Shown here piece after piece: positions 1-24,836 of a stretch of DNA of 39,955 nucleotides. Origin of the DNA: Chlorokybus atmophyticus (Eukaryota; Plantae; Mesostigma and Chlorokybus algae). Below the pieces are notes generated by a model. It had not been told where the DNA came from and ran no database searches. It saw nothing but the letters and a program-made list of their open reading frames with translations. The position numbers and the translations under genes were made by a program. The stretch's first letter is position 1. Each line of letters opens with the position of its first letter. Location: the NCBI GenBank assembly GCA_009103225.1, contig RHPI01001715.1:722750-762704 (forward strand), written 5' to 3'.

Positions 1-727
1 AGGGGGTGGGTGGGTGGGGACATGCATACATGCAGTGTCAGTTCACAGGCAACAAGAGTTCACAAAAAAAGAAACGAAACGTCTCTGCATGCTGCCTTAG
101 GGCACAAAGGGGTACCCTCGACCTCACCCCACGCCCCTGCTTGAGGCTGTTTGCCATTGGGCCCTTACCTCAGTCGAGTGACAGCACACCAGGTGGTGGC
201 TATGCTAACGGCGACTGCGACGACGGCGGCGGCGGCGGCGGCGGCGAGGCGTTTAGCCGTTGGGTGCGCGCCTGTACACGTGGCGGGTTTTTTGTGGTGT
301 GCCTGCGCCGCTTTTTCGGCCTACCCTAGTCCAAATCATGCAAGTGGGATAACCTCCTAACTAAGAGAGAATGGCATTATATAGACTTGTGATTAGGTTA
401 GTGGACTGCTTTAAAGACTGAGGCTTAGCTCTTCATTACATCATTACGACATGTACATAGTATTTTGTGAAATCAAGCCTGAAAATTTCCCATATAAATG
501 TTACCCCCTTTTGCATAATGCGATATCTTCACAAATGAAAATGTAGTGCCAATTTGAGTATAAGGTTTCGAAATGGAAACAGCTTCACTTTTTACGTTCT
601 GAAATGTATTGCCAGCATTGGCATAAATTTAATGCTAACAGCAAGCATTATACTATACCGTTGCACTGTTGCAATAAATGAATCGCATTTTTATAATAAT
701 GCAATCATACGGTGCTTATGTTTATGT

Positions 728-955
728 TATCGTGCAGGTAAGCCTCGACTGCGAGGTATGTCTCGCATAGGGAGCACACGCGGTATGGTACACAAATGTG
801 CAAAGCAAGTAGTGCGTTAGTACAGCTTCACAAGGCGATAAGTGAGGGCTGCGGTACTAGTGGTGGTGGGGTAATAGCAGAAGGGAGAGAGAGTGGTAAG
901 GGAAAACAAACTGTGTAGTCCCTTAAGCTTGGAATGAGGCTGTAATTACACAACA
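728..955 (-). repeat. LTR copy A (228 bp, diverged)
   Basis: TATCGTGCAGGTAAGCCTC...GAGGCTGTAATTACACAACA aligns end to end with 1610-1855. The first TG has become TA. Confidence 0.8.
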
Positions 956-1609
956 ATCTCCTTGACAAAGGATGAATGTGGACAAGCACATAGCAGTCAT
1001 GCAAGAGTGTTTGTGTGCGATCTGAGTTTGCTAAATAAAGCGAGTTTACGGGCTGTTAGCGCTCACCTAATAGCAAGCTAGTGGATGCCTACAACCGGAA
1101 TTGTGGTTGTGCAAGGCATGCAAAGAACCGTGTTAGGCAGGGGAGGATGCAATTCGCAGGGGCGGTGCCCACATCAGGAGGTCAACACAATAATGCAAGA
1201 CAAAGACAGCACCAAGGGCGGGGCAACGGCAGGGAGAAAGGTATACAACAAAGGAATTCGGACAACATCTCTTACGAGTTCAACATTCACACAAGGTAGC
1301 GTGCGTGCCTGCGGTTCACCTAGTCTGATGGTGACTTTTCGAGACTTAAAAGGAACGCCGCCGATTTCGTGCCAGTCTGCTTACTTGCAACTTACTACCG
1401 AATAATTCCCTAGGGTTTGCTTAAGGCAGCTGTCGATGTCGGCCGCCGCCACAACTCTTGCTTCTCATTGGCTGACCCCGCAAGAGGTGTCGACGGGTCT
1501 TGTCACGCGGTCTAACACATGTGCACCAGTTTGACCAATCCTAATGCTGATGAGAGCGCGCAAGGGGTGTGAAGCAGAAGTGCGTGCCGAGGGTCATTAC
1601 CGTGATAGC

Positions 1610-1855
1610 TGTCGTGCAGGTAAGCCTCAACCGCTGGGTATGTCTCGCAAAGATAGCACACGCGGTGTGGTACACAAGTGTGTAGAGCAAGTAGTGCGTC
1701 AATACAGCTTTGAGAGGCGAGTGAGGGCGCTTCAGGGCTGTAGTACTGGTGGTGGTGGTGGTGGCGGTAGTAGGTGCACGGAGGGACAGTGGTAAGGGAG
1801 AATTCTGTGTATGTGTAGTCGCCCAAGCTTAATATGAGGCTGTAATTACACAACA
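1610..1855 (-). repeat. LTR copy B (246 bp)
   Basis: Begins TGTCGTGCAGGTAAGCC and ends TAATTACACAACA. Diverged direct repeat of 728-955. Poly-C (PPT on minus) lies immediately to its right. Confidence 0.85.
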
Positions 1856-1924
1856 AGCTCCCCCCCTGTGTGGTCATTGGCGTCCTCGCGTTAAGCTTGG
1901 GACGTGTGACAGCGCTATGATTGG

Positions 1925-2065
1925 CTGGCATAGGAAAATGCCACATTGGGGTCGGTGACAACCGATGCTACACCGAGACTGCACGCCTCATGCCAATATT
2001 CCCAGCAATTGTCACACTCCATCAACGGTCGACGATCCGTTGCGCAACCGGTGCATTGCAATTTC
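1925..2065 (-). pseudogene. PHD finger at the C-terminus of the retrotransposon Pol
   Basis: LQCTGCATDRRPLMECDNCWEYWHEACSLGVASV..P matches the first six ligands of C4HC3; the final CxxC has decayed. It follows the integrase C-terminal region. Confidence 0.75.
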
Positions 2066-2756
2066 CGAGGGTGAGGTTTGCCAAGGCCTTTAACGTATAA
2101 GAGATGACAGAAGGGCCAGTTTTGCACGTGGTCCACCTCGGTGTTACAAGGGGGGTCTTGCAGAGACAGAGTACCTGCAGCGCGCACATGTACCACCTTG
2201 TATTCTGTACCATAGTTGGCCGGATCATGGGTGTTCGTGGTGTGCTTTTTGTGGTATACATAGTCTCAAACGTAAAACTTGCGAATTTAAGTAATGTAGC
2301 CCCCGCTACGTACGTGTGTGTAGCGGCGCTTGTCCCGTTGTTGCGCAATCTTCAGGTTGGCAAAAGCCATGGGCAAAGAGGCTTTACGTACGGAAGCCGG
2401 GGCTGCCAGCACCTGCATCAAGTGAGTGGGTTTGTTGATGAGGTCCTCCACTGCTTGTGTTGCGTGACGGATGCACAAGGGTAGTAGAGGTTCCCTCTCG
2501 AACATGAGGAAATAGGGGTCGAAGGATTGCAAGGCTGTTTGCCTTGTGCAGCGGTACCCGAGTGCTGTTGAGATGGACAATAACAAGCATACACATGCAC
2601 AAGTGCACGCCACAGCCCTAGCATCAGGAGACCATACAAGACCATCTATTGCTATTATATCCACGGGTTTTATACCCGCCAGCTACATATGTTTCTACTC
2701 TGGAAGCTACAGCATCCAGCACACTCAACCATAACCTGCGCTCTAACTTGCGCCAC

Positions 2757-3282
2757 TGTCACAGCCCACTCGACCACAAAAAACTTCGTGCTTTTATGGT
2801 CGATTTGTGGTGATTTAATGTGCCTTCCCGTTACATTCCCCCCCACTTAAGAACGCTGACGTCCTCGGCAGCTGCCCGGTCAGCTGGGGAATTACCCAAG
2901 GGGTTTGTTAGGGTCGGTCACCGGCCCCACAGCCAAGGACCGGCTAATTTAGGCCCATACCGGTCAGCGCGCGCATAGCGAAACGCTGCCGGCCCCACAG
3001 GTCGCGTCGCCGCGATAGGCAGGTCGCGCCCTTCCGCGCCGACTGAACTGGTCAGTTCGGCGCGACTGCCATTAGGCAAGTCGCGACCTATCGATGATGG
3101 CACTTATAAAGTGACCATTTACGATGTTATTGGATCGAGAAACAACAACCGCGGAATTCGTGTGCAAGGCAGGAATCGAACCCGGGTCTCAAGCTCCGAT
3201 GACCAATGTCACAGCCCACTCGACCACAAAAAACTTCGTGCTTTTATGGTCGATTTGTGGTGATTTGTGCCTTCCCGTTACA
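2757..3282 (-). mobile_element. TRIM (terminal-repeat retrotransposon in miniature), 526 bp
   Basis: LTRs at 2757-2835 (79 bp) and 3207-3282 (76 bp) are identical except for a 3-bp indel, with TG...CA ends. TSD GCCAC at 2752-2756 and 3283-3287. PBS-like TGGTCATCGGAGC (minus, 3205-3193); PPT GGGGGGGAA (minus, 2844-2836). Non-coding interior. Confidence 0.93.
3172..3226 (-). promoter_or_regulatory. Putative type-2 RNA polymerase III promoter (A box + B box) in the TRIM
   Basis: A-box-like TGGTCGAGTGG (3226-3216, inside the LTR) and B box GGTTCGATTCC (3182-3172, after the PBS) are separated by 33 nt, as in tRNA genes. Confidence 0.55.
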
Positions 3283-4013
3283 GCCACGGAGCTTCAAGAG
3301 CTTTCTAACAAGCCGCCATACGTGCCATATGGTAGAGTAGCCATCAGGCTATCATCATTCTGCTAGCCGTGCATGACCCTTCCAGATCCAAGTTCGCGCC
3401 TGGGCCTTCTCGAATCTTTGCTTAGAACCTTCTGGCGGCTATTTATACGTGGAGGGCAAGATGACCAATTGACCTACTAACCTGGATGTAAAAATATCCT
3501 CAACAAGTGCGAGCCAAGGCGGAAAATCATTCCACTCCTCCTGCTGGTGGGTCACACAGTAGCGACGGAGCGCTTTCTTGACTGTCTGCACCATCCTCTC
3601 TGCCAGGCCATTAACCTAAGGAACACGGCTCTTGCGGCAGTGATCAACGAGTGAGCGGTGAAGCAGAGTGTCGAATTCCCTTTGAAACTGGGTATCATTG
3701 TCGGTGAGCAGCTGTGCGCAAGCGCTAATTTGCTGAGAAGTGCTCTAGGTAGGCCTGGGTTACCGTGTGCGTGGTTTGTCTGGCAGCGGTATCAAATCGA
3801 CCCACTTGTTGAAGTGCTCGATGGCGACAAGTATGTATACATTGCCGCGACGTGTAACGGGCAGCTCCCCTGCAAGGTCCATACTCCCGCAGTAACCAAG
3901 CCCCATTATGGGCAAGGGATGCAGCTAAGGGTGGTGATGTGTTAAGCTTGCCTTGATGCGATCGCAAGATTCACATTGTCTCAGCATTTTCGCAACGTTG
4001 CGTGTAAGTTTCC

Positions 4014-4091
<78 letters not shown>

Positions 4092-4429
4092 NGGCAATGA
4101 TGGACGCCTGGCGGTTGGGTGGGGGAACCTCCTTGCGCTAGTCATTGGTCGTGATGCGCTAGAGGGCGTTGTAGTTCTAGGTTTTATTCTTTGAGCGATT
4201 CTGCGTGCGGTCACTGATCTTGTGATCCAGCCAAGCGGGCAAGGCTCTTGTTGTGATAGACTGCAAGGTGGGCTTATATCTGTCCACTTGTCTCCTTCAC
4301 TTTCAGAAGGTATAGTAGCCTTGAGCGCTGGATTGCATGCCTTGGCGCGTATACCGGTTGCTACAACCAACATGGCGTGTTTGCGGGGCGTGTCGCCGTC
4401 GTATCGTGCACATGTGGCATCCACCATGT

Positions 4430-4790
4430 CGGAGTGATGGTTATGATTCAAGCCATCACCATCGGTGTTAACAATGCTTGGCTTGTGAGTGATGGTAAAA
4501 TTGCTGTCTTGCAGTAGCAAGGCCCAACGCGCGTACTTGCTAGTGAGTTTGTTACTGGTGAGCAACCACTGCAAGGGCTGGTGGTCAGTGACCAACTTAA
4601 ATTGGCAACCGAAAAGGAACGGCCGAGAAAACTTGATGGACCCAACAGCTGCGAGGCGCTCCGCTTCATAGCTGCTGTAGTTGGCTTCTGCAGCGTTATT
4701 GCTTCGACTGGCATAAGCAATGACTTGTTTCTTACCCTCGTTATTCTTTTGGCAAAGCACCGCACCAAGCCCAAGCCGACTCTAGTCTGT
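4430..4790 (-). pseudogene. Ty3/gypsy RNase H domain
   Basis: VIAYASRS.NAAEANYSSYEAE.LAAV...RPFLFG.QFKLVTDHQPLQWLL...ARWALLLQD. Confidence 0.93.
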
Positions 4791-4799
4791 GTAGAGTAA

Positions 4800-5800
4800 A
4801 AAGGGCTTGTTGTAATCACAGCGCTAGGATGGGGGCCAACTGTAGGTGGCTCTTTAATGCCTTAAAGGCTTGCTGCTCGGCTTCTCCCTGATGCCAAGTA
4901 ATTGCTTTCTTCAACAGGTCATTAAGAAGTTTGACCACCTAGAAGAATTAAGCACAAACCGGCGGTAACAGTTGGCAAGACCATGGAAGGCACGCAGACG
5001 CGAGATGTCCATTGATGGTGGCACCGTCAGAAACGCATCCATTTTTGTCTGCTACATCAACATTATGTTGGGGACGATATGTGGGCCAAGTTATGGAATT
5101 TTGTCAGCGAAGAAGGTACACATCTGAAACTGTGTCGAAAGCCCGTGCTCCTTTAATCGGTGCATCACCTCCATGATGTGCTACAGGTGAGCTTCAGTGG
5201 TGTGGCTAAAGATGTAGATGTCATCAATGTAGCAGCTAGAGTGGTCTAGCCCATGAAAGATTCCGTCCATCATGCATCGCAAGACATCAGGTGCATTCTT
5301 CGATAAAAAAAGCATAACCTTCCATTGATACAATGTCCGGTTGCCCCAAAAAACTATCTTGCACTTGTCCTCCGTCTTGATGCCGATCTGGTGAAGTTCG
5401 GAGCACATGTCCAACACTGTATAGTACTTGCAGGTGCCGATGCTGTTGAAGATCTCGTTAGGGTACATGCGATAGCGATCAAGCACATTGTGGTTGTGAA
5501 GGTTGCGATAGTCGCCGCACATGCGCCGCTGCGGCCACTGTCCTTGCTCCTCCTTCTTCAAGGGCATGACGGTGGCGGCTGCATACCGGGTGCTGGGTGC
5601 TGCTTCCTCAATGAGTCCTACGTCCAGCAACTTCCTGCAGGTGGTTTTAATAAGCTCCATCTCAACCTTTGCCAACGCGTGCTGCTTGTGGAAGATGGGA
5701 CCTGGAGTGTCTAAGTCGATTGTACACTCGCGGAAGTTGCACTTGCCAAAGTCTTGGCGAGAGTGGGCAAACTGTGTTTTGTGTTCTTCGAAGAGTGACT
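4800..5800 (-). pseudogene. Ty3/gypsy reverse transcriptase
   Basis: RMCGDYRNL, VLDMCSELHQI, YQWKVMLF..KNAP, CYIDDIYIFS, then RLRAFHGLANCYRRFV. Contains internal stops. Confidence 0.95.
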
Positions 5801-6029
5801 TCAACGTATACTCAACATCGCTGGCGGCCATACAGCCGCTGCGCCAACCTTCTTGCTTAGGTTTGTCGCTATGGGGGATGTCAAGTGCTTCAGTAAGTGC
5901 TTTAAGCTCAACGCCGTGCACAGCCATGGAGACGAATGATGGGTCCCTGATCTCTGTAGCCTCTCACCCCCCCAGCGTATGGCCTGCGCTGTTGAGGCGG
6001 CCGGTAGCTGTGGTGAAGGGCCAAGAATG

Positions 6030-6980
6030 TTGCCAGTACCAAATCATGCTGTTCAGGTCCACGGCACGATCAAGCAGCTCTCGACAATCGCATTCCACCA
6101 GCTTGGGCGCATGTGTGATAGCACCACTGGCAGACCAGAAACCTATTGCTAATTCGCGCTCATTAGCCAGTGGTTTTGAAAGATAGCTGAGATTGCTATC
6201 CCAATCCATACCACTGTTGTCGTTACGAAAAGAATGTGAGCCTGAGGCCACTAATGTTGGCAAAGCAACCATGGGGTGTCCCACCTTGATATTATAATGG
6301 AAGTGCTTGTAGTCCGGCTGAGTGACTGATTGAGGAGTATCTGTAATAGCCAGGATATCTTGTACGAGTAGGCCAGGAGGCTTAGTTAATAGAAGATGTG
6401 ATGCTGTTAAGTCTTGCATATTAGCAAAGATTGTTCACTTCCTGCGCAACTGTTGGGCACGAGAGCCGTGAGCAGCAGTAATAATTACAACAGGTGCACC
6501 AAGCACAGTGCAAACTCATTCGTAGTCTGTGCGTACGTTGTTGCGCTGGTCATCTTAAGCACATACACTCAGGAAGGTATGCGGGAGGTCTGTCGGGTTG
6601 CTGATTTTTAAATGTATTCATGATACGAACCAACTCCCAAAATAGCTTGACCCTCGGGTCTTGAAGGCCAAGTCCTTTACCAACGCGCGAGTGCCCCCAA
6701 CATTCCAATCTGCTATAATAAGGTCAACCCCTCCTCGTGCCAAAAGGTGTTTCCCTGTGATGAAGCAGATGTCCTGAGGCAAGGCACGGAGGCTGTTTTA
6801 GGTTGCGGACGGAGCTAGCAATGGGAACCTTTCGCGCATCTGAAGCATGTGGTGCGACATTGTCTGTGCTTGCGGGCTGGGGTCATAGTAGAAGCACTTT
6901 ATGACTAGAATGCCTATGCTCAGCACGGATGCTAAGCCACTTTCGACTCCTCCAAACAACTCCAAGACATTTATACCGTT
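6030..6980 (-). pseudogene. C5-cytosine DNA methyltransferase domain embedded in Pol (frameshifted)
   Basis: Motif I INVLELFGG (~6974). ALPQDI. Motif IV VDLIIADW-[1-nt deletion]-CWGHSRVGKGLGLQDPR.KLFWELVR (Cys codon at 6700-6702). Motif VI AYLPEC (ENV decayed). Motif VIII GSRAQQLRRK*TIF. Motif IX NERELAIGF. Motif X LLDRAVDLN. All are in canonical order. Confidence 0.88.
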
Positions 6981-8299
6981 GCGACGCCGATGTGGTGCCA
7001 AGCACACGGTAGAAAGGTCCAGCTGACGAAGGGGGTCATCAGGCACGGGAGGTGAAGTGACCGGGGTAGTTGCCACGCGGGCCGCAATGGCCCAAGCGAG
7101 CCAACGGCGCTGAGCGGGGTCTTGCTTGGCTACTTCACAAGAAGCCTAAGAGTGTAGAGTTGATGTTTTACCACACACTCTAAAACGTGGGTTACTTTGT
7201 GTAGTAGCGGCGGTATTGAACTCCGCCGGTGCTGTTTGTGCAAGTCCTTTCGCGAACAAGTGCAAGGATGTCATGCTAACGATGTATGACTTAATATTCT
7301 GTCCCCNNNNNNNNNNNNNNNNNNNNNNNNNNNNNNNNNNNNNNNNNNNNNNNNNNNNNNNNNNNNNNNNNNNNNNNNNNNNNNNNNNNNNNNNNNNNNN
7401 NNNNNNNNNNNNNNNNNNNNNNNNNNNNNNNNNNNNNNNNNNNNNNNNNNNNNNNNNNNNNNNNNNNNNNNNNNNNNNNNNNNNNNNNNNNNNNNNNNNN
7501 NNNNNNNNNNNNNNNNNNNNNNNNNNNNNNNNNNNNNNNNNNNNNNNNNNNNNNNNNNNNNNNNNNNNNNNNNNNNNNNNNNNNNNNNNNNNNNNNNNNN
7601 NNNNNNNNNNNNNNNNNNNNNNNNNNNNNNNNNNNNNNNNNNNNNNNNNNNNNNNNNNNNNNNNNNNNNNNNNNNNNNNNNNNNNNNNNNNNNNNNNNNN
7701 NNNNNNNNNNNNNNNNNNNNNNNNNNNNNNNNNNNNNNNNNNNNNNNNNNNNNNNNNNNNNNNNNNNNNNNNNNNNNNNNNNNNNNNNNNNNNNNNNNNN
7801 NNNNNNNNNNNNNNNNNNNNNNNNNNNNNNNNNNNNNNNNNNNNNNNNNNNNNNNNNNNNNNNNNNNNNNNNNNNNNNNNNNNNNNNNNNNNNNNNNNNN
7901 NNNNNNNNNNNNNNNNNNNNNNNNNNNNNNNNNNNNNNNNNNNNNNNNNNNNNNNNNNNNNNNNNNNNCCCCCCCCCCCCCCCCCCCCCTTTAGCTCAGC
8001 TTTAACCGAACACTCATGGATAACAATGCGTAACGCCTAAGATTCGACTCGATCCCCCTCGGGCAGGTTCAAGCTGTAACGGAAAGTGGCATTGGCGCGT
8101 CGGGTGGCTGTAAGAGGGTACTACGAAAAGGTGCTTAGGTGTAGAGGAAAGCCTACAAGTGTTCCATCGCCTGAATGCTAGCTTGGCCGGAGGTGTGTGT
8201 GCTTTGTCTGTATGTCGAGTGCCGCGTTAATTAGAAACAAGGCCTCTATGCTAGTGAGAATGTCGAACATCTCCGAATCAGAAACAAGGCTGAACACAT

Positions 8300-8520
8300 T
8301 TTGGACGGAAGTCTCCTCTCATGTGTAGCCGGTGAAGCGCAGTGGTATGCGCTGGCGCATCTCTCCTCTTATTGTTTCCAAACCGCCTTGAGCAGTGTGT
8401 GAATCTCATGCGAACTCTCATCCAAATCATCGAGGTTGATGCGGATGCATTCCGCAGCTCGTCCGCTTAGGATAACACGTTGGGCGCCGGTATCACACAA
8501 TACGTGGCGAGGGGAACAAC
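8300..8520 (-). pseudogene. Retropepsin aspartic protease
   Basis: Reads HVLCDTGAQRVIL, with the DTG at 8494-8486. Confidence 0.8.
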
Positions 8521-8599
8521 CGATGGTGTGCAAAAGTGACATGGCCCAAAAGGTTGTTAACCATACTAATGTTTGAGCGAAAGCAGAGCCGGTTCATGG

Positions 8600-11200
8600 T
8601 GTGAGGTGGCCCGCAAAGATTTGATAATGACGGGACAATGACGCCGTGTTTGGATTGTGCTATCGGCCAGTGGTGTAGTAAGTACGTCGAGAGCAGCTCG
8701 TAGTACACCTTCTTGCATTGGTGGAGCTGGGTCCTCCATCTTGGCTTCGGATGCATCCTTCGCCGAGGATGCCTGTGGAAGGGGCCTGCTCTTTTTAGGG
8801 AGGTGATTCAACTTGTGGGGAAGGCAGGTCGGCTGGAGGGCCGGGTGGATTAGCCGGTAGAGCAGGTGTTTAAGAACCGCCATCGTAGCTAGGTTGGTAA
8901 CGAGAGGCTACTAGTAGTACCTTTAATGCTTGATGAAGAGCCTCACCGGTGAGGGCACGCTCCCAATGCTGATGGCGACGATCCCCGTAAGCTGTCACGG
9001 GCACAATGGGGAGGAGAGCCACGTAGGCTGCTATTATGTCCCGCTCCACGTCGCTAAGTGCTCGGTTGCTTTGTCCCTTTGTCCTCGGGGACTCCCTCTA
9101 TACCTCGCACACGGCTCTCCATCACTTGCTGAAGGTCACGAGTCTCATGGTCATCTCCATAATGAAACTTGCATTATATGCAAAATGCATTTCAGGAATT
9201 TGCTTTTGCATATTTTGCAAGGGAAGTCAGGTCGCGACCAAGTTCCCAAGCAAGGAGGCTGCTGTTATCTTTGAACCCTTGTAGCGTCTGCTCCCCATGT
9301 TCGCGGTCGGTCATCCATGGAGGCTGGACCATCTTGTTGTCGATTATACGAGTAAGCATGAGAGGGAGCCGAACAAGCAAGAAGTCCTCGAACAAAGTGG
9401 CGGCGCTGACAAAGTGATCTTTGTCGAGGGAGTGGACTGAGTGTAACAACCAGCGGACAAGCTCTTGGTCAGAAATACCGCGGCCCAGCTGCACCAGATC
9501 ATGCCATGGCCCCTCTTTACTAATATAAGTTGTCCACTGCCAACTTACACGCGTGACGCGTGAGCGATCTACGTGGCTGTAGATCATCACGGCCTATTGG
9601 CGGATGGTGTGCTGCGTCCATGTACGGTTGCGGATGAGAGTTGCTTGAACAAGCCGTCATGCGAGCCTAGCGCTGAGCAACATCCCCATTCCCCCCCTCA
9701 ATGCCGGGTAAGGGCGTGCTGCGCAGCCAGTGGGCGTGTGTGAGCTCAGGGAGCGTGCGCGGTGGAGCGTCTTGAAGTAAGAGCCTGGTACGTAGTGACC
9801 ACAGCTTTCTGTTAACCTTCTTTGCTTGTTACAAACGCTACCGCCGGTGAGCAAGTCGGAAGTCATCGTATGTCGCGGCCTTGCAAGAAACTTCTATGTA
9901 TGTTGTTGTCTTATTGAAAAGCACCAACAAGCACTGTGTGGAGTCCTCCTCCGAGGCAGTGGCAGGGGCGAAACCTTCGTGGGGGAGGTAGTCTATGCGG
10001 AACTCCCCCTCCCACGCTGCACGGGCAAGATGCAGTGGCATGTAGGCTCCTTGCGGCCGATGCCCTAGGTAGGGTTGTGGCGGAGAGCGCGAGGTGTCCA
10101 TTACCTGACTCTGGTGTAGCCACCACTGGCATTCATTAGCGAAGCATTCAGGTGCGTCAGCCTGCAGCTGGCCTAATCAATGTAGCCTTAAGGCTGCACG
10201 TACACGCATGCGCTCGCGCACATAGTGCATGTCCCGTGAATGTTATTGCGTACGCCGTTTAAAGCTGCGTCAAGTTGAATTGCCGATTATTCATAGAACG
10301 CTAACACGGCTTTGGCGGCGTCTGTGGGTGCAAGCTTAAACAATTGCTGGTGCAAGGTGTTGTCTGCGGGCGCCGGCGTCATGATGAAGTGGTACCGGTG
10401 GCGTGAGAGGCAGCCAACTGAGTGAGTGATGGTGGAGTGTACCCTGTACCAGCGTGCGTGGATGTGCGCGAGATGTTCTCCATCCATTTCGGGTACTGTG
10501 AAATCAAACAGTGGTGCGGGGTAGAACTCTTGGCATGTGGTAATCTACCAACTCACGGTTTGCCAACGCTGGTAGTCAGCGTTTCGCAAGGCAGGAAAGT
10601 AAGTCGTTGAGCTCATACCATTGAGTGTGGCGGTGGCGCATGGCTTCAAGCACATCCCTGAGGACCATGTCTTCGTATGCCTCCAGGCTACTTAGCCGCG
10701 CCAAATGTTGTGGAAACAACTGTATGTTTTCGGACACCAAGTGGACCCGGTGAGAGAGTGATGTGACGTGCGGTGATGGCAATATTCTAATGCGCACAAT
10801 CATCATGTGGCAAGTTAGCGTCCAGCGGATAACCGATCGTGGGGTTTGCTGAATAGCCTCAAGTGTCTATTGTGCCCAGGTTTTCACAGTGATTGGCGAT
10901 GGCATATACAAATATGCCCATGTAGCGTCCTACAGGCGACGACGAAGACATCCAAGACACTGTTGGAGGAGGGCCTGGTGTGTCGTAGGCGTCCCTCCTG
11001 CTACCACGTCGGCTTGCTCCGTGCGTAAGGTCGTTAATTATATGTTGTACCTGTTGACGGAGTCTTAAAACTGTTGCCGCATGGCAACCTCCTCTGGTGT
11101 GGGTGGCAGATGCATAAGGCTGGGCGGTCTCAAGGGGAGAAGGAAGGCATGGTTGCTGCCTCGCTCAGCAACGAGTTGAGTTAGTGCCGCTTGAGGTTCA
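8600..11200 (-). pseudogene. Degenerate gag-like / 5' coding region of the retrotransposon
   Basis: Fragmented minus-strand ORFs between the leader and the protease. No motif recognised; assigned by position only. Confidence 0.4.
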
Positions 11201-12582
11201 CCCAAAATCACACCCTATTCACGGGCCTCGCGAGCTGGAGCGTTGACTGCGCGTTGCTGAGCCAGGTTGAGCACCCAGCAAGAGGTGTCAATGGGTCTTG
11301 TCACGCGGTTTAACACATGTGCACCAGTTTGATCGATCCTGCTGCTGATAAGAGCGCACAGGGGTGGCGAGGAGAAGTGCGTGCCAAGGGTCATTACCGT
11401 GATATTAATGCCTCCTTCAGGACTCGGTTATACGTCACATCAATTAACATATATATGTAAGAGAGCCTAATGGTATGCTTCATATCGATCGTGCTTCCCC
11501 CCCCCCCCCCCCCCCCCTANCGTGCCCCTCAGATATGCAATTACACATGCGAAATAAAGAATAGACTTGTGTGCTACATCTTTAAGAAAACAAGATATAC
11601 CTTAATCACAGATTGCATTTGTTATTCATGACATTGCGTTAAAAGGGGGCATTAGGCTTGGATAATTACATTTTGAGTACCTTAACAGAAGTAATATGAG
11701 ATAAAGAGCTGAATTCGCTCTTCATCTCATATAAATCACGCGTGTTTAATGTATCAAAGTGTTCAAGTTACAAACTTAACATCTTGATAAAACATCTGTA
11801 CTCATTCAAACAATCCGTACACCCATACGCTGACACAGTGCACCAATTATTGCACATCCATTGTGCGCATTCATAACAATTGCATTCGCATTGACACTCT
11901 GATCATTCTCGATAAGCTATACAATGAATAAATGCTGAGCACTGATGTAGTGCAGCATGTGACTTGAAGCGCATACGGTGCGGTGTGTGTGTGTGCATGA
12001 ATGTGATCGGCATGCATGCAGCGCACCCAACTTTAGACAAACGTATGCTTATTGCAGTATGCATAGCTACTTAGCAACATTGATCGGATTGATTCACTAA
12101 AGTTTGATTTGTTAACCCGTGTTGTAGCAATATATGCTTACGTGCGCACTCACCTTCAACCACCTATTCATGCACGTCCTCACAGATGTGCGGAACAGGC
12201 CTACATAAAGTTCAAATCGGTTGCACTCACACTATGACATTCGTTGCAAGTCGGGCAATCTTGAGCCCAAGGTCATTGATGATTGTATAACTTACCTTAG
12301 GGGGGGGGGGGGGGGGGGGNAACAAGTATCACGCCGATGGCGTTGTTGGGTTGACCTAACAGTTTCATGTTGCATGTGCATATGGATGTAAGTGCATGCA
12401 ATGCATGTTTAACTCACACACGCCATCTTGTACGCACTGGTACAAGCGCTCTAAGTGAGTCACATTGAAGTCAACGGTGGTAGTCCCGACGCAAGCGCAC
12501 CAAACTCTATGTATACACAAACAATACATGGACTTGTATGAAAACAACTACTAGTCGTACTCTACAACAACAAGTCGTCCTG

Positions 12583-15500
12583 TCAAGTGCTGCTCCAAGG
12601 CATGGAATAGCAGCCCATGGCTTGTACGGGGAGGCTGCGGGTCCTCGTGACATCCAACTTAGCAGCGTTCTTATTGACATTGCCGGCGAGGTCCGCCACA
12701 GCCCCGGCTTTGACTTCTACAACAACACCTCCATAAAACCCTTCATCAAAGGCAACAACAAGCATACGCACATTGGGCCCACTGTCAGGAACCAAACTCG
12801 GGCCCGATATCAGCCTCCCACCAGGGGATATGGCCACTCCCGCAGCGGTCAGCACGGATATCGCCTCGGATGAGTGCAGGATGAATGTGATTGCGGAGTT
12901 TATCGTTGCGGCGCCGATGCCGGACACGGATATCAGGTCCGTCCCGTACAGATCGACCTGAGGTGGGGTGACATCGGCGCAGGGCTTCTTCTCCATGCAG
13001 GTGAAGCCGAGGGCTGGACACTGGAAGGAGTGTGTACAGCACTGAACAACCTGCAGGGAGAGGCGTACGTAAGTGGGCATGCGTGCGTGTGCATGTGTGG
13101 GTGCAAGTGTGTGTTGCTGCGCTTGCACATGCACGGCGTGTGCGCATCTGTGTGCTTATGTGTGTGTGGGAGCGTGTGCATGCGCATGTTTGTGTGTGTG
13201 CCCTTGCGCGCGTGCGTGCATGTGAACAGACACCATCACATGGTCATGTGTCAACCAGGTACATATATAAAGCTATTCAAGTTGTGAGTTGGTTCATGCC
13301 TGTGAGTGTCATGAACTCATGTGTCAACCGATTGCATATATACAGCTGTTCAAGCTATGAGTGGGTTCATGCCTGTGAGTGGGCATAGACGGCGTCAACA
13401 GATAGAGCCAGGCAGTCCCCGCAGTCGTTATGAAGGGCGTCACAGGCTAGGTTGAACCCAGCGCCTGACTCGCAGCTGCCGCTTCCCAACTTCGACTCAA
13501 ACACTGAGGCCTGTGCAACAACAACAACATGTTGTATCACTTCCCACATACCCACAAACGCTACACGCTCACTTACCAGTATGCACACGCCGTCGCAGTC
13601 GAAGCGGCCGAATACGGACGAGCCAATCACGCAGTCTCCACCTGGCTCAGCGAATGTGATGGTGACCTTGTTGGACTCGCCGTTGGGGTGTCCGCTCTCG
13701 TTGGCGCGGGTGGCGTTCTCCCGCAACGAGATGGTCACCACGCACGGCTGGCAGACGGATATGGAGTAGGACTGACTGTCCTTGAGGTCCTGGTGGATCT
13801 GCATTGCAGGAATTGCAGTCAGTAGACAATGTGTGTGTGTGTGTGTGTGTGTGCGTATGTGCATGTGTGCACATGCGTGTGTACGCGCCCACACATGTGC
13901 ATGCGAGTGTGCCCATGTTTGTGGGCAGCATGACTGCAGCGTTGTTGTTTCGCACCTGTATGCAATCCGGGGAAAAACGGCTGCACTCAGAGATGTCTGA
14001 TATATCCATGACGGTGCGTGTGGCAGCAGGTTCGAAGCCAGAAGACACGCCTGTAAGAGTTGGGGCCGAGGCCGATATCGGTGGTGAGGGAAGTGTTACC
14101 CAAGCCACCGTGACGGTGCCGTCGGCGAATGCGATAGATGCCTCAAAGGCGTGCATCGCCTTTGTTTCAATGATGAACCCAACACGTATGTTGGTTTCAG
14201 TCTCTCTCACCACCGCCGACGTGGCTATGTGATCGTTGTTGGTAGCCAACACGCTCACGCGCGGGATCGCAAAGTGGGCTTGAAGTGGTGTTGCTTTGCT
14301 CGGTAAAGTGTGAGGCTCGGTGAAGGATACGAACCCGCCCTCGGATACGTATATGGCGTCATAGCTCTCGCCGAAGAACAACACGCCGTTGGGATGCTTG
14401 AGTGGGTACCGGAAGTACCCCGCTGGTCCGAAAGTGAACGTGTGCCCGAACAATGCCCACGACGGGTCTGAGGGGGAATGTGACCCAATGCATGCTCGAT
14501 ACACGCCTCCCCACGGTGTGTACACAACACTTCTCCCCACAAGTTGAGATAGAGCAGTCGCACCCTCATGCATGAAGACCACGTTGCCCGCACGCGTGAC
14601 GGGGAGGGCGGAGGAGGTGATTGTGAAGGATGATGTGGGGTCTTGAGGTGGAGGAATGTGCTCACGCGTGTCGAAGCGAAGTTGCATTGTTGTTGTGTCG
14701 GATGCGGTTGTGGTAACCGAGCTCAGCTCCGAACCGACGGTTAACTTAGTGTGTACCCGAGAGCCGGCTAACCGCAAAGTGGCTGACTGGATAGTCGGTT
14801 TGCCGTCGCAGTCAGTTGCAGCGTTCTCCTTCACGGTTATCTCCATAGGCTCTCCTGGCACATCCGCAGTCACGCTAATCGCAAACGCTCTTGGGAAGCT
14901 CTGGCAGCTGCCTGTGGGCGCTTCAGCTTGACCAGGGTCAAGTTGGGTAACTGCGGTTAGATCCTTGACCCTTCCACCACTAACCGTTATCCCCTCAGGG
15001 CCGAAGCCGGTTACTGGCTGCTCAAACTCAACCAGGATGAGGCCGTCCTTGACCACGGTTAGTTTGACTGCGGTAGGTTGACTGACAACGAAGGTTGTGT
15101 GAGGTGGGTCCTCCTCCATCACGCCCTCGAGGGAGGTCCCCCTCACGCTGAATGTGTACACACCGTTTGGTAGGGATGTGTACACGCGTGGTGAACGACA
15201 CGGCCTCCATCCAGGCAACTCTGCAGCCACCACAACGATACACGTCAACACCACATGCACACACACAGGCCCTGGCAGCCGTACACACATAAAAGCACAT
15301 GCACTGGCATAGGTATGGACACACATACCGTCACACGCATACAGAAGAGCACACCGCGCAGACACGCATGCATGCCTTGTAATCCTCATGCATCACGTAC
15401 CGTAAGGTGGTTGTGCCGTGGTGATGCTCTCAGCTGGCAGTAGCACATCATCAATAGCCCAAAAACATGACACTCCATCTTCACTCTCCTCCTCTTCAAC

Positions 15501-18500
15501 CCATCTGAGTGATGTGGCAGCCGTGCGCGCAGCAACCGGCATCTCCACTCTCACCGCTGATATGCCTGATATCGCCACGCTCGAGTTCCAGAGCGTCTGA
15601 TACCCTGCCGATATCGCCGTGGCGTACTGAAACAGGACTGGAGGACAAGCCTTCGATATTAACCCGCTGCCGATATACGTGAAGGACACGGTGCGGAACT
15701 GCTGGGTATCTCTTGCTTCTGTTGTTGCGGAGCGTATTTCGCCTGTATCGATATCAGAGTCGAAGCAAAGGGCTCTAGAAGGGAGGCTTTCTCCTCCGCA
15801 CTCGTCACTCATGCGCGCACGTGCGGACACATTCGCCCACAACCCTCCGGCGATATCATACCCGGCCTCAAAATCCGCCACCTTCACAGGTCCAGGCGCA
15901 GCAGGTTCCAACCTACACTCCCAGGTGATATCGGCCTCATCTCCAGCGAATCCAAACGCTAAGGTCCTAGACCCGGACCCTTGCTGTAGGTCCGAACCCG
16001 AAGTTAGGACTGTCACTGGGGGGCCATCGATGGTAAAGGACCTGGATGAGGGTACTATCTGGACCCCACCTGGCAGTTGGGTCCCTAACCCACCCGCTTC
16101 GGGTCGCTTGGCTCGGACCCGCAGCGTGTAGGACCCGTCGGGTAAGGGACCCAATGTGAGGGGAGATGCGCACTCTCTCCAACCCATTGGCTGAGGACCT
16201 GAATAGGGGACAATATAACAAGTCGAGTGTTATGTGGACTTGTGGTTGAGTTGGTGCGTGAAAGTTGCAACACCCACCTACGAGGGAGCAGAGGAATGAG
16301 ACTGGTGTTGAGGAGGAGTTGAAAGTTGTTGTTACTGAGCGTGTGCGCACGAGCTTCCGGGGATACGTTGTGAAGAGGGCCTGGGGCGGGTCCGGCCAGC
16401 TGGCGGCTGTGTGTGTCCATGAAAATAGGTTAGTGGCGTGTGGGTGTGTGCTGCAGGCTTGTGAAAAGCTTATTGCTTGTTCTTGCCTTCTGATATGGGC
16501 AGGGGCTCGGGTGCAGCAAAGGAGGCAGCGGCCTGGAGGGCCTTGAAGACGTTGAGCCTGCGTGTACGTGTGCGTGCATGTGGGTGTGTGCGTGGGTTGG
16601 GGGCTCAGGAGACTATTGCGTGTAGTAACTCAACAACAACTGCTGTGTCACACTCACCTGCCGCCGGACACGCACAGGTCCTGCAGCTGCGGCAGCCTAT
16701 CTGCGGTGGCCACCAGCAGCGCTCGTGTCTCAGCTGGCGCCAAACCCGGCTGCACACCCAACATCAACGCCGCCGCGCCTACGGTACCGAGGGACCGTCA
16801 ATCCAAGACATACACACGCACGTTCTGCGATTGACGCATGCAAGTACTCACACGCGCACGCGCGCACACTGTAACCAACCAACTTCGGTATTAGCTTCTC
16901 ACCTGCCACGAACGGCGCCGCAAACGACGTCCCGCTCTGCCTTGCATACTTCCCCTCCTTCCCACACTTATTCACCACACTCTCCCCACTCCCAAACCCC
17001 CCCTCCTTCTCTCCCTTCTCCTCCCTCGAGCACGGCATCGCTCCAATCACCTCCTCCCCCGGCGCGAACACCCCCACCGTCTCCCTCCCGGACCCGCTCT
17101 GCCAGTAGCGCTGGTCCTGTTTGTCGGACGCCGACACCGCGATGACGTTGGGGTCGGAGAGGGAGAAAGAAGCGGGGAAGCGGGGGAGAGCGTCGAGGTT
17201 GGAGGCGAGGTTGCCGGAGGCGGCAACGACCAACACGCCCTGAGAGGGGAGAGGGTGTGCGTGGGGGCGCGCGCGCGCGTGTGTGTGTGTGTGTTTGTGT
17301 GTGTGCATGTGAGCATGCATGTGCGCACGCCCACGCTCACACACACGCAAAGGTGATCACATTGGGTGGGTGGATGTGTGCGCACGCGCACATCCACCCA
17401 CCAGTGGATGTGTCATTGCGCACCTATGTGCACGCATGTTCGCGGATTCCTGTGCAACTATTGCCTCTGCATTCCGAATATATACTTCCTCCCCCTCCCC
17501 TCACCTGCGCATGCGCCTGATCAATGACATCCTGCATCGCCCTGCTCCTCGCGTTCGTGCTCCACGAGTTGCAGATCACCTTCGCCCCGTTGTCGAGCGC
17601 GTACGCGATGGCGCGGACCGCGTCCGACACCGCCCCGCTGCCGCGACTGCCGGACAGGAACTTGAGGGACATCAGACGGACGCGCTGAGAGACGCCGGAG
17701 AGACCGAGGTGGTTGTTGCCGACTGGGGGGAAGAGAAGGGTGAGGTGTGGTGGGGGTCAACGTGTGTGTGTGTGAGTGGGTGGGTGTGCGTGCGGAGTTG
17801 CATGCCCACTCTCACGTGCACGCGTGCGGCTGCGCATGCACACATGCGCACACTGACGCGTGCGTTTGTAAGCACATGTGCGGTTGTGAGTGGTCCTCAA
17901 CGCATCCACACACCTGCTCTCCATATGCATGCATGCACACACGCATGATTGCAGCTAGTCGTGAACACTCCCCACGCACGCACACCCACATCGCCACAAG
18001 TCCCCCCCCCCCCCCCCNNNNNNNNNNNNNNNNNNNNNNNNNNNNNNNNNNNNNNNNNNNNNNNNNNNNNNNNNNNNNNNNNNNNNNNNNNNNNNNNNNN
18101 NNNNNNNNNNNNNNNNNNNNNNNNNNNNNNNNNNNNNNNNNNNNNNNNNNNNNNNNNNNNNNNNNNNCCACCTGCTCCGATGACCGACGCCACATGCGTC
18201 CCATGATAATACGTATCCATCGCATCCGCTCGATCCCCCGCGAAGTCGTACCCGTGGATGTCGTCGACGTAACCGTTGCCGTCGTCGTCGAGGCCGTTAC
18301 CGGCGATCTCCCCACCGTTCACCCACATGTTCTCCGAAAGGTCCGGGTGGCCGTAGTCGATGCCGGAGTCGACCACGGCGACGATCACGCTGCCGTCGCC
18401 TGGGGAGCGGGGGTATTGTTGCTGTGGGTGTGGGTGTGGGTACTGTCGCTAATGAGGTAACGTGGTGGTGGTAAACACCAAACTCAACGACAGTGACAAC

Positions 18501-18607
18501 ATTGTCGCAACAACAACAACAACAACAACAGCAACAGCAACTTTTGTGTTCCTTCAATGTTGTTGTTGCCTATGTTGTATTCCTTCATTGCTGTTGCTAC
18601 CGAAACA

Positions 18608-18638
<31 letters not shown>

Positions 18639-19536
18639 CAACAACAACAACAAGAACAACAACAGCGTTGTGGTCAACTTGTTGCTGCCATTTACTTATT
18701 GTTGTCCTTGATGTTGTTGTTTTTGTTTTATTTTATTGTTGTTGTTGTTGCTGTTTTTGCTGCTGCTGCTGCTGTCGTTGTCGTTGCTGTTGTTGTTGTC
18801 GTCAACCCTTGTTGTCCTACACCCTCACCTGAGAAGATGCTGAACGCTTGCGCAAGTCCAACTTGCTGCGCTCCCCACTGCGCTTCCCACATGGGATCGT
18901 TGGGTACGCTGGCAGGGACGTCATCACCGATAGCATTGGCAGCGTCAATGGCAGCAGCCACGTCCGCACTGGCATCAGAGGAGGCGTCCAGATGCACCTC
19001 GCCGTCGCACTCACAGTAGCTGATGCTCTCGTGCTGCCTGCATGTGTGCGTGGGTGGGTGCGTGGGTGTGGGTGTGGGTGTAGATGTCACAACATATGTG
19101 TGTGCGTGTGTCTCCTAACATACTCGCATTCTCGTTGGAGGTCTGCGCAGGTTCGGCTGTCCCCCTCCGCGAGCTCCAGCACCTCCAGGCCACGCCCACG
19201 CCAGACGGGCCACGTGTCCGCAAGCACCCTCGCCGCAGGCCTTCCATCTGTATACATCTCTCAGAAACAAAGGTACATTGTCACAGCAGACCAGGCCAGG
19301 CCAGGCTAGGCCAGGCAGTTACCAGTGTGGGCGGTGGATGTGCCGCCGCTGCCAGTGGCGTGGCTGACGATCAGACGCCTGTTGCGCTCCGCAACCGCCG
19401 ACACCGGCGCGACGAAGACGGTCACGGACAGGAGAAGAAGCAGGAGAGGCAGCGTCGCCGCTCTTCTGGTGCAGCCCATTGCTGCCATTGTTGCCGCCGC
19501 CGCCGCTGCCGGCAACGACGACAACGGCAAGGACAA
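12583..19536 (-). CDS. Secreted subtilisin-like S8 serine peptidase with Ig-like, reelin-like, NIDO-like and Cys-rich C-terminal modules. Exons approx. 19323-19536 (or ATG at 19488), 19124-19247, 18829-19037, 18172-18399, 17505-17722, 16903-17239, 16658-16778, 16487-16557, 16278-16406, 15401-16198, 13956-15220, 13577-13798, ~13373-13510, 12583-13050.
   Basis: Signal peptide (LPLLLLLLSVTVFVAPVSA). Catalytic motifs VAVVDSG, HGTHVA, AASGN and SGTSFAAP are intact. Exon phases join into one open frame with AG acceptors and GT/GC donors. The exon 13 donor and the 3' end are less certain. Confidence 0.88.
13244..13381. repeat. Two-copy tandem duplication (65-bp copies, 73-bp period)
   Basis: TCATGTGTCAACC...GGTTCATGCCTGTGAGTG occurs at 13244-13308 and 13317-13381. 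Confidence 0.85.
18505..18805. repeat. Compound CAA/CAG and TTG/CTG trinucleotide microsatellites in S8 intron 3
   Basis: Visible (CAA)n, (CAG)n and (TTG)n tracts between exons 18399 and 18829. Confidence 0.9.
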
Positions 19537-22331: not shown

Positions 22332-24545
22332 CTAAGCCGTCTTCTTTATGCTAAAACACCTAATGTGTAGGGCGTCTGTAATCTCCCTAATCACGCCTAT
22401 TGCGAAATGTGCGTACAGAAAGAAGGTGAAAACAAAGTAAGCTACCAACACGTACACCTCTTTCACCATCGGCGTCCCGCCGAGCATCTGCGCGGAGAGC
22501 GCGTTGGCAATGGCCAACGGGAGGAATGTCAACCCCATGGACATGTTGGTCTTCAGACCTTTGGGCTCATCGCATAAGTGTGCGAGGATTACGCGTCCAA
22601 CCAACAGCCCGAAGGAGAACCCCGTCGCGATGATGAAGAGGTGAGGCTGCCTGCCAAATATGTTGGTAGGCGAGAGCTGAATCCACGCGGCTGTCATGGC
22701 CACAAGTGAGATGAACGGACCCAACATAGCCATGGGAAGAAGCATAGACTTCTTCTGGTGGCGCATGGCGCGCGACACGTTGGTGAAGTTCTGTATGAGT
22801 GTGGGGAGAGCCGCGCCGAACGTGTTGAGGAGAAGGACAAAGTCCTTTATCTGGAGGAAGGGCAAGTTGGGAAACACGTGTCTCACGCCTATGAGGGTGA
22901 AGAAGTCCCGCCCCCACGCCTCCGCACCGGTGAACGCTGTGAGCATGTGGATCACGTAGATCATCAGCAGTCCCTCCGTTGGCCCGTTGACCTCCGACAG
23001 CACCAGCGAGTGCGTGTAGTAGTGCTCCCACGTGGCAAAGAAGAAAGGAATTGAGGCAAGAAGCCACATCCACAGCAGCCGCCAACCCGCACCCGCCATC
23101 GCCGTGGATGCCAGCACAAGAGACTCAAACCCGCAGGTCAGCGCGTCGCACCCGTGGTCAAACAGCTCACCCAACGGACTTGAAGAACTTGTCCTACGAG
23201 CCTGCGCGCAGACACGTGTGTGCATGCGCACATGCATGCGCGAGCATGTACATGCGTGCATGCGTGCAGGAGTTTTTGCATACACGCATGTGCATGTGCA
23301 CGTAGGTGCAAGCGCGAGCGCTTGTAGACCGATATACACATGCATTGACACAGCACAACCAGCTATTAGGGACTCCCGTCACCCAAAGAAACAAGCTATA
23401 CGACAAGATTCCTTCACATAGCGTACACATCAACAAGTCAACTACCGACACATGAACTTGATCAAAACAGTAAGAGCGTACCTGCTTGCCATCGACAGCA
23501 TCAAAGGTCTGATACAGGAACAGCAAGATGCCGTGCAAAAAATATATGCTTCGAGGTGACGGGATGTTGAGCTGGGGGCAGTACAGCCACGACAGGAAGC
23601 AGGAGGTCAGAATGAAGAAGAAGCCCATCAATGTGATGGCGTTGGGGGCGAACCATAGAGGAAAAATCTTCACAAACTGCATGCGTGTACACAGTGTCAG
23701 GTCTGCAACACCTTGTTGATACACAAGCTGCATATTGCTCAGAAACTGTTCACACTTGAAATTAACAGAACATCCTGAGGGGCTGCAGTCCAATGTGAAC
23801 ATTGCTGCGATGAATGATAACACGAAAAGTTGCGACCAAGTGCTGGGCGTTTTATTTTTTTGCGACAACACATCCTGTAGCGTGTTGCTTGCACTGTGCA
23901 AATTGCAATTGATCAGCCAGCAATAAACACTGAAACGGTAAACTAGCCATGCAGAATTACAAGAAGAAACAACGGCCTGCACTCACTTACAGCAGGCTGA
24001 CAATGCAGCAACCAATAATACTGCTATAAATTATAAAACACGAAAAGTTGTGACCAAGTGCTGGGCGTTTTATCTTTTTTCGACAACACATCCTGTAGCG
24101 TGTTGCTTGCACTGTGCAAATTGCGATTGGTCAGCCAGCAATAAACACTGAAACGGTAACCTAGCCATGCGTAATTACAAGAAGAAACAACGGCCTGCAC
24201 TCCATTACAGCTGGCTGATATTCAGCAACCAATAATGCTGGAAGGGTAAAAGCTGTAGACAAGGAGTGCATGCTGTGTTTAACAAACTGGGGAGCAAGCG
24301 AGCGAAAAGCTGCAACGCAACAGCTGTAAAATAACAGGGAAAGCATGCAAATGCTTGTATTGGGTAAAACTAGGTGTGCAGACAAACAGGCAACAGAGGA
24401 CAATCAACAAACAGAGCTCAGGCCAAACCCTTGCCTGTGTCCAGAAACGTTGGAAAAACAGCCTTGCTGTGATGGACTTGTCAATGCCGGTGTATTTGTA
24501 CTTCTTGAGCTGTTGAACCCCATGATTGGAGATGTAGAACCCCAT
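22332..24545 (-). CDS. AAPT1: Aminoalcoholphosphotransferase (choline/ethanolamine phosphotransferase), 391 aa. Exons 24435-24545, 23482-23676, 22332-23201.
   Basis: KYKYTGIDKS; CDP-alcohol phosphotransferase motif DAVDGKQARRT...LGELFDHGCD; plant-type C-terminus LAHLCDEPKGLKTNM. Confidence 0.95.
23819..24241. repeat. Two-copy tandem duplication (218-bp period) in AAPT intron 1
   Basis: AACACGAAAAGTTG.GACCAAGTGCTGGGCG... starts at 23819 and again at 24037, with scattered substitutions. Confidence 0.92.
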
Positions 24546-24836
24546 GGCAGCACCCTGATGGCCAGGCCCTGGCCTAGCCTAGCCTGGCCTGGCAGAACCA
24601 CCCTCCAAGGGCGGCGCAAACCACAGGCGTCAGCTACAGAGCATGCTTCCCTGCTGTCTTGCTCGCTCCACACAAGCAGTCACCAAACCCGACACAGCGT
24701 GGCCCTGGTGCAACTCCGCCCCCCAACAACAATAACTCTCCCGCCACCGCCGCCGCCGCTACTAGCTGACTAACCGTGGTTAATAATTTCAGTTTCAGAT
24801 TGACGCCGGCCACGAGAGGATGTCAGTCACAAGTTG

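Follow-up and report, generated by a model that had tools for sequence, protein, structure and literature searches.

Two kinds of retrotransposon that carry a DNA methyltransferase (DNMT) of Dnmt3 type were described by de Mendoza et al. 2018 (PMC5890265), KnitGypsy-Dnmt3 in the alga Klebsormidium nitens and SymbioDIRS-Dnmt3 in Symbiodinium. According to the legend of Fig. 4 in that paper, KnitGypsy-Dnmt3 combines DIRS-like A-B-A-B repeats with gypsy domains, and its text reports that isolated SymbioDIRS-Dnmt3 domains methylate CG in yeast. A stretch of 39,955 nucleotides from Chlorokybus atmophyticus (assembly GCA_009103225.1, contig RHPI01001715.1, positions 722,750 to 762,704), hereafter the window, was analysed. 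An original prediction, made from the letters alone, had placed a Ty3/gypsy retrotransposon with its own methyltransferase there. The element spans about 11404–730 on the minus strand (approximately 10.7 kb) and is, with good confidence, a dead Ty3/gypsy retrotransposon with a DNMT3-type domain directly before the reverse transcriptase (RT) in the Pol frame and with A...B-A-B ends; it is likely of the KnitGypsy-Dnmt3 lineage, and active relatives would likely methylate their own new complementary DNA (cDNA) in the particle. The DNMT3-type identity of the domain, together with its status as a trait of the family, is close to certain.

The methyltransferase domain and its element

A DNMT profile built from four intact relatives (P0003–P0006) was searched in all six frames of the window. 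It matched 6986–6042 of the minus strand in the main frame (E=2e-42) and, in a second frame, the piece carrying motifs IV and VI (6705–6562, E=7.6e-5); the two remaining matches had E=1.9 and 6. Because the profile matches in both frames, the frameshifts that the original prediction had set near 6702 and 6555 are considered real and lie near 6703 and 6558. With these corrected, all six predicted motifs were located on the minus strand in the order in which they had been read, I (6965–6948), IV (6702–6688), VI (6576–6562), VIII (6473–6444), IX (6164–6141) and X (6074–6051), which is the normal order and not the permuted one of DRM enzymes; the domain is intronless. This copy retains the catalytic Cys and the motif VI Glu but no longer has the Gly and Gln of motif IV, the Asn of motif VI or, in motif VIII, the first Arg and the Trp. 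Since conserved motif residues have disappeared, and 13 stops interrupt the frame over 6986–4428, the copy is dead, as had been claimed. Pfam PF00145, proposed as a check on the corrected translation, gave a score under its cut-off of 22 on the motif IV–VI fragment (E=0.0069, 16.3 bits) and no match on the main-frame read-through; Pfam scans of the uncorrected open reading frame (ORF) fragments found no DNMT.

RT lies in the same frame as the DNMT with a single TGA between them. Because a gap of 662 N separates the protease from the DNMT, only the DNMT–RT side of this arrangement is in continuous sequence here; the predicted position just before RT stands, and the DTG protease is present on the predicted side but beyond the gap. 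The flanks of the gap by themselves (approximately 850 nt) already match the protease-to-DNMT spacing of the family (684–765 nt). A poly-G/N join at about 4018–4092, just before the integrase, is a second assembly join inside the element. Contigs from one DNA run (share 0.10) were short and included exact pieces of the window (369–558 and 6879–7051) as well as diverged copies, and they bridge neither assembly gap of the element; no RNA run containing the window was listed. Contig joints at 7990–11495 are poly-C artefacts.

Protease, RT, RNase H and a DDE integrase follow one another in the Pol order of Ty3/gypsy elements, and the complete order is A1, presumed gag, protease, gap, DNMT, RT, RNase H, integrase, PHD remnant, B1, A2, spacer and B2 (Table 1). 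The ends are split repeats (A-coding-B-A-B, with the spacer before B2) and not ordinary long terminal repeats (LTRs). A1 was probably truncated by a deletion, and the spacer is possibly the rest of repeat A that A1 is missing, judging from the related locus L027, where B2 directly follows A2. These repeats, the assembly gap and two nested insertions had been overlooked in the original prediction, which was correct in placing the DNMT in Pol. The presumed gag had no Pfam match in three frames and no tblastn match from ORF1 of the related loci L001, L008 and L037, and the PHD profile alone reached only E=0.38 on the remnant. No recombinase family was matched when minus-strand frames and ORFs were scanned against Pfam, an rve integrase being present instead, and the window Pfam scans gave no chromodomain match. 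No remnant of a second methyltransferase, of the type found at the tail of some relatives, was detected in the window (best E=0.11).

Table 1. Features of the element and of the insertions nested in it (window positions)
Feature	Position	Strand	Evidence or remark
Repeat A1, 5' end of element	11273..11404	-	88 % identity to A2 over 133 nt, E=8e-42; first bases are the family start after the junction
Presumed gag region, heavily decayed	8600..11270	-	assigned by position only
Aspartic protease remnant, DTG at 8497-8483, one frameshift	8136..8520	-	PF13975 E=0.053; family protease profile E=5e-5 and 8e-5 in two frames
Assembly gap, 662 N, poly-G edges, between protease and DNMT	7307..7968	.	sequence
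DNMT3-type C5 cytosine methyltransferase domain, decayed, two frameshifts and stops	6042..6986	-	profile, motifs; catalytic Cys codon 6702-6700 kept
In-frame TGA between DNMT and RT	5964..5966	-	one of the 13 stops in frame
Reverse transcriptase, decayed, YIDD at 5231-5220	5100..5810	-	PF00078 E=4.1e-7; RT-RNase H 45 % identity to P0168
RNase H	4455..4814	-	PF17917 E=2.4e-27
Integrase, N-terminal part and core	3505..4008	-	PF00665 E=0.0016; tblastn E=9e-26 to P0161
Integrase C-terminal part and PHD-finger remnant	1981..2565	-	tblastn of P0004 2380-2579 to 2565-1981, E=4.5e-22, extending into the P0004 PHD
Repeat B1	1608..1861	-	76 % identity to B2 over 250 columns, E=4e-46; G-rich run like a polypurine tract before it; ends in CACGACA-GC junction
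Repeat A2, abuts B1	1475..1607	-	identity to A1
Spacer, 513 nt, A2 to B2	962..1474	-	no second copy in window
Repeat B2, 3' end of element	730..961	-	identity to B1
Nested insertion in integrase, solo-LTR-like, TGTTG..CAACA ends, 5-bp target duplication	2566..3505	-	integrase alignment is interrupted between 3505 and 2565
Second nested insertion, inside the first, TRIM-like, ~80-nt LTRs, tracts like a primer-binding site and a polypurine tract, 5-bp target duplication	2757..3282	-	repeats, ends

Relatives and enzyme class

A search of 1.84 billion representatives (clusters at 50 % identity) returned 378 proteins that match the window domain at E<=0.001. Two domain orders were distinguished among them, order B, the order of the window, in which protease–DNMT or DNMT–RT are adjacent, and order A, in which the DNMT lies between RNase H and integrase. 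The best 150 of the 378 comprised 18 of order B, 82 of order A and 50 unplaced, with 100 of these 150 adjoining retroelement domains. Named carriers of order B were Closterium spp. proteins and K. nitens GAQ93235.1 (E=6e-14, among the best 150), a partial protein with zinc knuckle, protease and DNMT that ends there. The best RT–RNase H relative among 81 matches, P0168 (45 % identity), has DNMT, RT, RNase H and integrase in one ORF and aligns with the window unbroken over 968 columns (36 % identity, E=3e-144), starting at DNMT motif I and including RNase H; P0161 aligns likewise (E=2e-104). The segment might have proved absent from intact members of the family, but P0168, P0073/P0161 and P0174 all carry the DNMT in the same slot in one ORF, with 46.1 bits for PF00145 in P0073. 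A metagenome scan yielded 54 loci, of which 37 with long matches were analysed (32 of order B, five unplaced and none of order A); the other 17, L038–L054, had short matches and were left out of the tallies of order and of stop codons. As the scan pattern was built from order-B proteins, the count of 32 of 37 is no measure of abundance. The idea that the window's order is a private rearrangement, raised by the order A of the first four homologues, was ruled out by the order-B relatives and by these 32 loci. A word search for proteins of 334–1066 residues spanning the DNMT–RT junction found none, which is weak evidence and was overtaken by the later homologue searches.

Members of the order-A clade, among them P0003–P0006, P0024 and P0029 (Scenedesmus), carry the DNMT3-type domain behind RNase H and ahead of the integrase, and a PHD finger follows; a PHD finger after the integrase is found in most full-length relatives. 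Scenedesmus sp. PABB004 is the sole named member of order A, and the equation of order A with chlorophytes rests on that one label. The protein P0176 has a degenerate DNMT-like domain before RT (residues about 172–383, 25 bits) in addition to a PHD finger and a tail methyltransferase; the position of its DNMT before RT hints that order B may be the older of the two.

The class of the enzyme was assigned from the profile and the fold of relatives and not from the window copy itself. Among solved C5 enzymes, a profile of 32 relatives ranked DNMT3A first (E=2e-25), followed by DNMT3B (1e-21), DRM (2e-13) and M.HhaI (1.5e-7), and DNMT1 was absent among its 57 matches. An AlphaFold model of the relative P0062 (predicted local distance difference test, pLDDT, 93.6) had DNMT3A/3B/3C as its best fold match (E=8e-21). 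The rank of DNMT3 far above the other solved C5 enzymes fits Gypsy-DNMT3, in a comparison that included no DNMT4 or EpiLTR sequence. Among 96 placed full-length domains, the catalytic Cys and the motif VI Glu were present in all 96, the Asn of motif VI in 93, and the two arginines of motif VIII in 95 and 93. Because catalytic residues are conserved in this way, the domain has likely been retained as an enzyme in the relatives.

A second class I S-adenosylmethionine (SAM)-dependent methyltransferase fold follows the PHD finger in L037 (8204–8749) and at the C-termini of P0004, P0176 and approximately 30 proteins. A model of this tail domain (pLDDT 87.5) had KsgA and other class I enzymes as its best fold matches (template modelling score about 0.5–0.6), and PF01555 was matched in one member (E=0.003). 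It could not be identified as DAM, with no PF05869 match in 25 members and a generic class I fold. Tail-bearing relatives would be two-methyltransferase elements distinct from the EpiLTRs described so far. The protein P0131 combines the same DNMT type (PF00145) with a Dam domain (PF05869 E=6.5e-12) and an apparently DIRS-type Pol, the DIRS reading having been made by eye.

Stop codon, ends and predicted role of the methyltransferase

Among 32 loci with the whole DNMT–RT linker, 27 have a stop codon followed by CARYYN and five have none. The stop is in the DNMT frame in 22 of the 27 (5 CARYYA, 17 CAACCC) and off frame in five decayed copies. These loci belong to only four subfamilies (L001/L002, L003/L036, L008 and the L005 group), which are 57–79 % alike in the best translated segment, and the motif stands at L001:5083–5091, L003:4661–4669 and L008:4509–4517 and also in L027 and about 20 near copies. 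One further locus, L017, is a single base from the stop-CARYY context. For background, CARYYA follows 32 of 13,525 stop triplets, and stop-CARYY occurs in 7.5 % of random 200-nt windows. P0168, P0073, P0174 and L037 have no stop between DNMT and RT. UAG-CARYYA is reported as the readthrough signal of tobacco mosaic virus (TMV), and CARYYA as a driver of readthrough in plants (PMC2754532, PMC4132726). The relatives resemble the TMV type in having stop-CAR-YYA or stop-CAA-CCC in frame in four subfamilies and differ from it in that the stop follows protease and DNMT instead of the end of gag, with readthrough being predicted only; the window has no such stop context. From these sequence patterns, the stop of the relatives is likely a readthrough stop. 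The window TGA was rejected as a programmed stop, as its 3' context is not CARYY and P0168, the nearest intact relative, has no stop there, and decay is its more likely origin. In the four subfamilies, leaky termination after the DNMT would yield more gag-protease-DNMT than RT-integrase.

The relatives have ends of the form TG..CA and, in both loci that hold two ends (L025 and L027), 4-bp target duplications, which together are the signature of a DDE integrase. Repeats are placed in L027 as A (1676–2017), coding region, B (10238–10350), A (10350–10691) and B (10693–10805), and a G-rich run precedes B1 both there and in the window. At the internal B|A junction, L003 and L005 have CACGACA-GC-TGTCA, from which L027 deviates by one base and the window by one change. 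Retroviral-type integrases trim two terminal bases, and the junction looks like joined ends plus two bases of this kind. The element may store its joined ends in this form and use them as the template for both termini, the two trimmed bases included, where other elements would copy between their two LTRs. The conserved ends point to a replication route between those of DIRS and LTR elements. Two family copies are internally deleted, L028 and L025:6404–13951, the latter retaining both ends and the 4-bp duplication.

Parts of the polyprotein of an LTR element end up in the particle with the cDNA. The protease of the element would free the DNMT from the polyprotein inside the particle, and the freed enzyme would methylate CG on the new cDNA before or at integration, so that new copies would integrate pre-marked and either pass as host DNA or limit their own early expression. 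That cDNA is the main substrate is given an even chance. Support for cDNA methylation is indirect and comes from the activity of the Symbiodinium Dnmt3 domains in yeast (PMC5890265), from the place of the domain in the polyprotein and from two near-intact loci, L008 and L001, which are short of CpG (observed/expected ratio, o/e, 0.28 and 0.55) and not of CHG (1.21 and 0.97). Several results weigh against methylation of the element's own cDNA. One KnitGypsy-Dnmt3 domain assayed in yeast gave no methylation, a result that its authors call inconclusive (PMC5890265). The CpG o/e of the window element is 0.73–0.85, compared with 0.76–0.88 in three host-gene regions, and shows no extra CpG loss; in the intact L037 it is 0.89, and the seven loci examined are mixed (0.28–0.89, read without a host background for comparison). 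CpG loss was therefore rejected as a sign of self-methylation, being absent in the window and mixed in the seven loci.

With family and origin unchanged, the DNMT might instead be directed by the PHD finger, acting mainly on older copies or on the host chromatin where the element inserts, or it might bind DNA only. The PHD finger behind the integrase in most full-length relatives would suit such a role, as would the inactive KnitGypsy domain (PMC5890265), the unremarkable CpG content of the window element and the merely degenerate DNMT retained by P0176, and de Mendoza et al. leave the role of the retrotransposon DNMT open (PMC5890265). The invariance of the catalytic residues in 96 of 96 placed domains counts against binding only, however, and membership of the polyprotein puts the domain in the particle beside the cDNA. 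This alternative is regarded as rather unlikely, and cDNA remains the favoured substrate.

Origin of the element and comparison with known systems

An RT–RNase H tree was reconstructed from 40 rows, including 14 of the 46 order-A rows and 12 sampled DNMT-free rows. The DNMT-bearing lineage formed one clade against the 12 DNMT-free rows (100/99), with the window in a 12-row clade containing P0168 and Coleochaete and Closterium rows (98/93), sister to the order-A clade (100/100). P0176 and P0177 branched outside both order clades with weak support (88/74). A 122-row FastTree agreed with this tree, and the named RT neighbours of the window are streptophyte algae. In a DNMT tree of 129 rows, all 81 order-A rows fell on one side of a weak branch (0.40). 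These trees are read most simply as one capture with a later move of the domain inside Pol, though this is not proven. The element was considered related to the Klebsormidium elements because the DNMT of the partial GAQ93235.1 apparently lies in the same slot, because the A-B-A-B build and the DNMT3 type are shared, and because the RT of the window clusters with those of Closterium and Coleochaete elements. A common origin with the Klebsormidium family is probable, and the lineage that the original prediction had left as either related or independent leans to related.

Other observations stand against this account of the family and its origin. Three of the four nearest RT relatives, P0169, P0170 (Coleochaete scutata) and P0171, are RT-RNase H-integrase-PHD proteins without a DNMT; they begin no more than 112 residues before RT, as the second ORF of a split element would, and an upstream DNMT ORF is possible for them. 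The place of the window among order-B rows was not resolved in the DNMT tree. The RT outgroups were returns of a word search and not the nearest DNMT-free green-algal gypsy elements, and the trees contained no K. nitens RT and no host DNMT3. The window element has no clean target-site duplication.

This last point, together with the 662-N gap and the poly-G/N join inside the element, two joins that also count against this account, and the lower similarity of the B copies (76 %) than of the A copies (88 %), would fit a composite of two copies of the same family joined across assembly gaps. The domains are nevertheless collinear with intact relatives over both joins and A1 matches A2, making a composite unlikely, and even then the DNMT–RT link, lying in continuous sequence, would be left intact. 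That another gypsy lineage took up DNMT3 on its own, in convergence with the Klebsormidium elements, is more doubtful still. In the DNMT tree the window domain and the K. nitens protein P0119 do not cluster together, and captures of DNMTs recur in Symbiodinium, Euglena and Cymbomonas; such convergence would, however, have to reproduce apparently the same slot, the same rare repeat build and the same gypsy type, GAQ93235.1 itself is among the best 150 matches of the window domain, and all DNMT-bearing RT rows form one clade. A one-off capture of a host DNMT fragment by a single copy, which the weak direct Pfam score might suggest, has a negligible probability and is refuted by P0168 and P0073, intact single-ORF relatives of the same order, with the 32 of 37 loci, the lack of introns and the 100 of the best 150 matches placed beside retroelement domains also against it.

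A wider scenario built on the shared origin is offered tentatively. There may be one ancient Ty3 clade of the green lineage that acquired DNMT3 once, before or across the chlorophyte–streptophyte split, and in which the domain moved within Pol, standing before RT in streptophytes and behind RNase H in chlorophytes, often with a second, C-terminal SAM-methyltransferase. DIRS-like split repeats with the CA-GC-TG junction would rebuild the termini and the DDE integrase would insert the copies, UAG-CARYYA readthrough in some members would load DNMT at Gag level, and copies would integrate pre-methylated.

Of the two insertions nested in the integrase (Table 1), the TRIM-like one had the highest contig depth in DNA run X1. 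Host genes lie beyond the element. A multi-exon subtilase gene occupies about 12400–19500 on the minus strand (PF00082 in two exons, a reelin-like PF21471 and a long C-terminal part). A CDP-alcohol phosphatidyltransferase gene (AAPT-like) lies at 22332–24700 on the same strand, with 22335–23195 placed in the family by the protein atlas, and presumably resembles land-plant AAPT. The region 31800–36400 encodes a NIDO domain (PF06119 E=4.7e-10) and several repeated GGPY-containing units without a Pfam match, one of them (33825–34286) on the opposite strand.

What retrotransposon-borne DNMTs do has been an open question since 2018, in part because a gypsy version was known from a single alga and showed no activity in yeast. 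By itself the dead copy in the window adds little, but it leads to many intact natural versions (the 378 homologous clusters), and the two orders on sister RT clades, the likely readthrough stop setting the enzyme dose and the conserved ends make both cDNA methylation and the replication route testable. In the literature searched, with thin coverage of subscription papers, theses and Repbase, Gypsy-DNMT3 was named only in PMC5890265 and bioRxiv 10.64898/2026.05.21.726589, and no account of the readthrough stop, the end structure, the second domain order or chlorophyte members was found, figures and main supplements being outside that coverage. These family features are new as far as that literature goes, and the DNMT-gypsy kind, previously described in one alga, is a much wider family than reported.

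Comparison with other described elements separates the window from three of them, as far as the available parts of the sources describe these. SymbioDIRS-Dnmt3 of Symbiodinium (PMC5890265) shares a Dnmt3-type domain in Pol, A-coding-B-A-B repeats and the occurrence of two domain orders, but has a DIRS RT and a tyrosine recombinase where the window has a gypsy RT and a DDE integrase. The EpiLTRs of Cymbomonas and Euglena (bioRxiv 10.64898/2026.05.21.726589) are likewise Ty3 elements with a C5 DNMT and a chromatin-reading domain; their DNMT is sister to DNMT4 and is joined by DAM and a chromodomain, in contrast to the DNMT3-type domain, the PHD remnant and the single methyltransferase of the window, although many relatives of the window end in the second SAM-dependent fold. 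Gypsy-7a_cRei of Chlamydomonas reinhardtii (bioRxiv 10.1101/2022.06.16.496473) is a green-algal gypsy element that also has a PHD finger, but its listed domains include no methyltransferase and it has LTRs at both ends.

KnitGypsy-Dnmt3 of K. nitens is the closest system. Its text description in PMC5890265 makes no mention of domain order, PHD, TG..CA ends, target duplications, a readthrough stop or members outside K. nitens, and Fig. 4c of that paper may show order and PHD. The window element differs in its host and in being a dead copy. It shares gypsy domains, an intronless and unrearranged Dnmt3-type DNMT in Pol and DIRS-like split repeats, and the protease comes before the DNMT in the single, partial K. 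nitens protein GAQ93235.1 as it does in the window. With four of six defining features examined present and none contradicted, the window element is most likely a member of the KnitGypsy-Dnmt3 kind, and as a copy it is ordinary for that kind.
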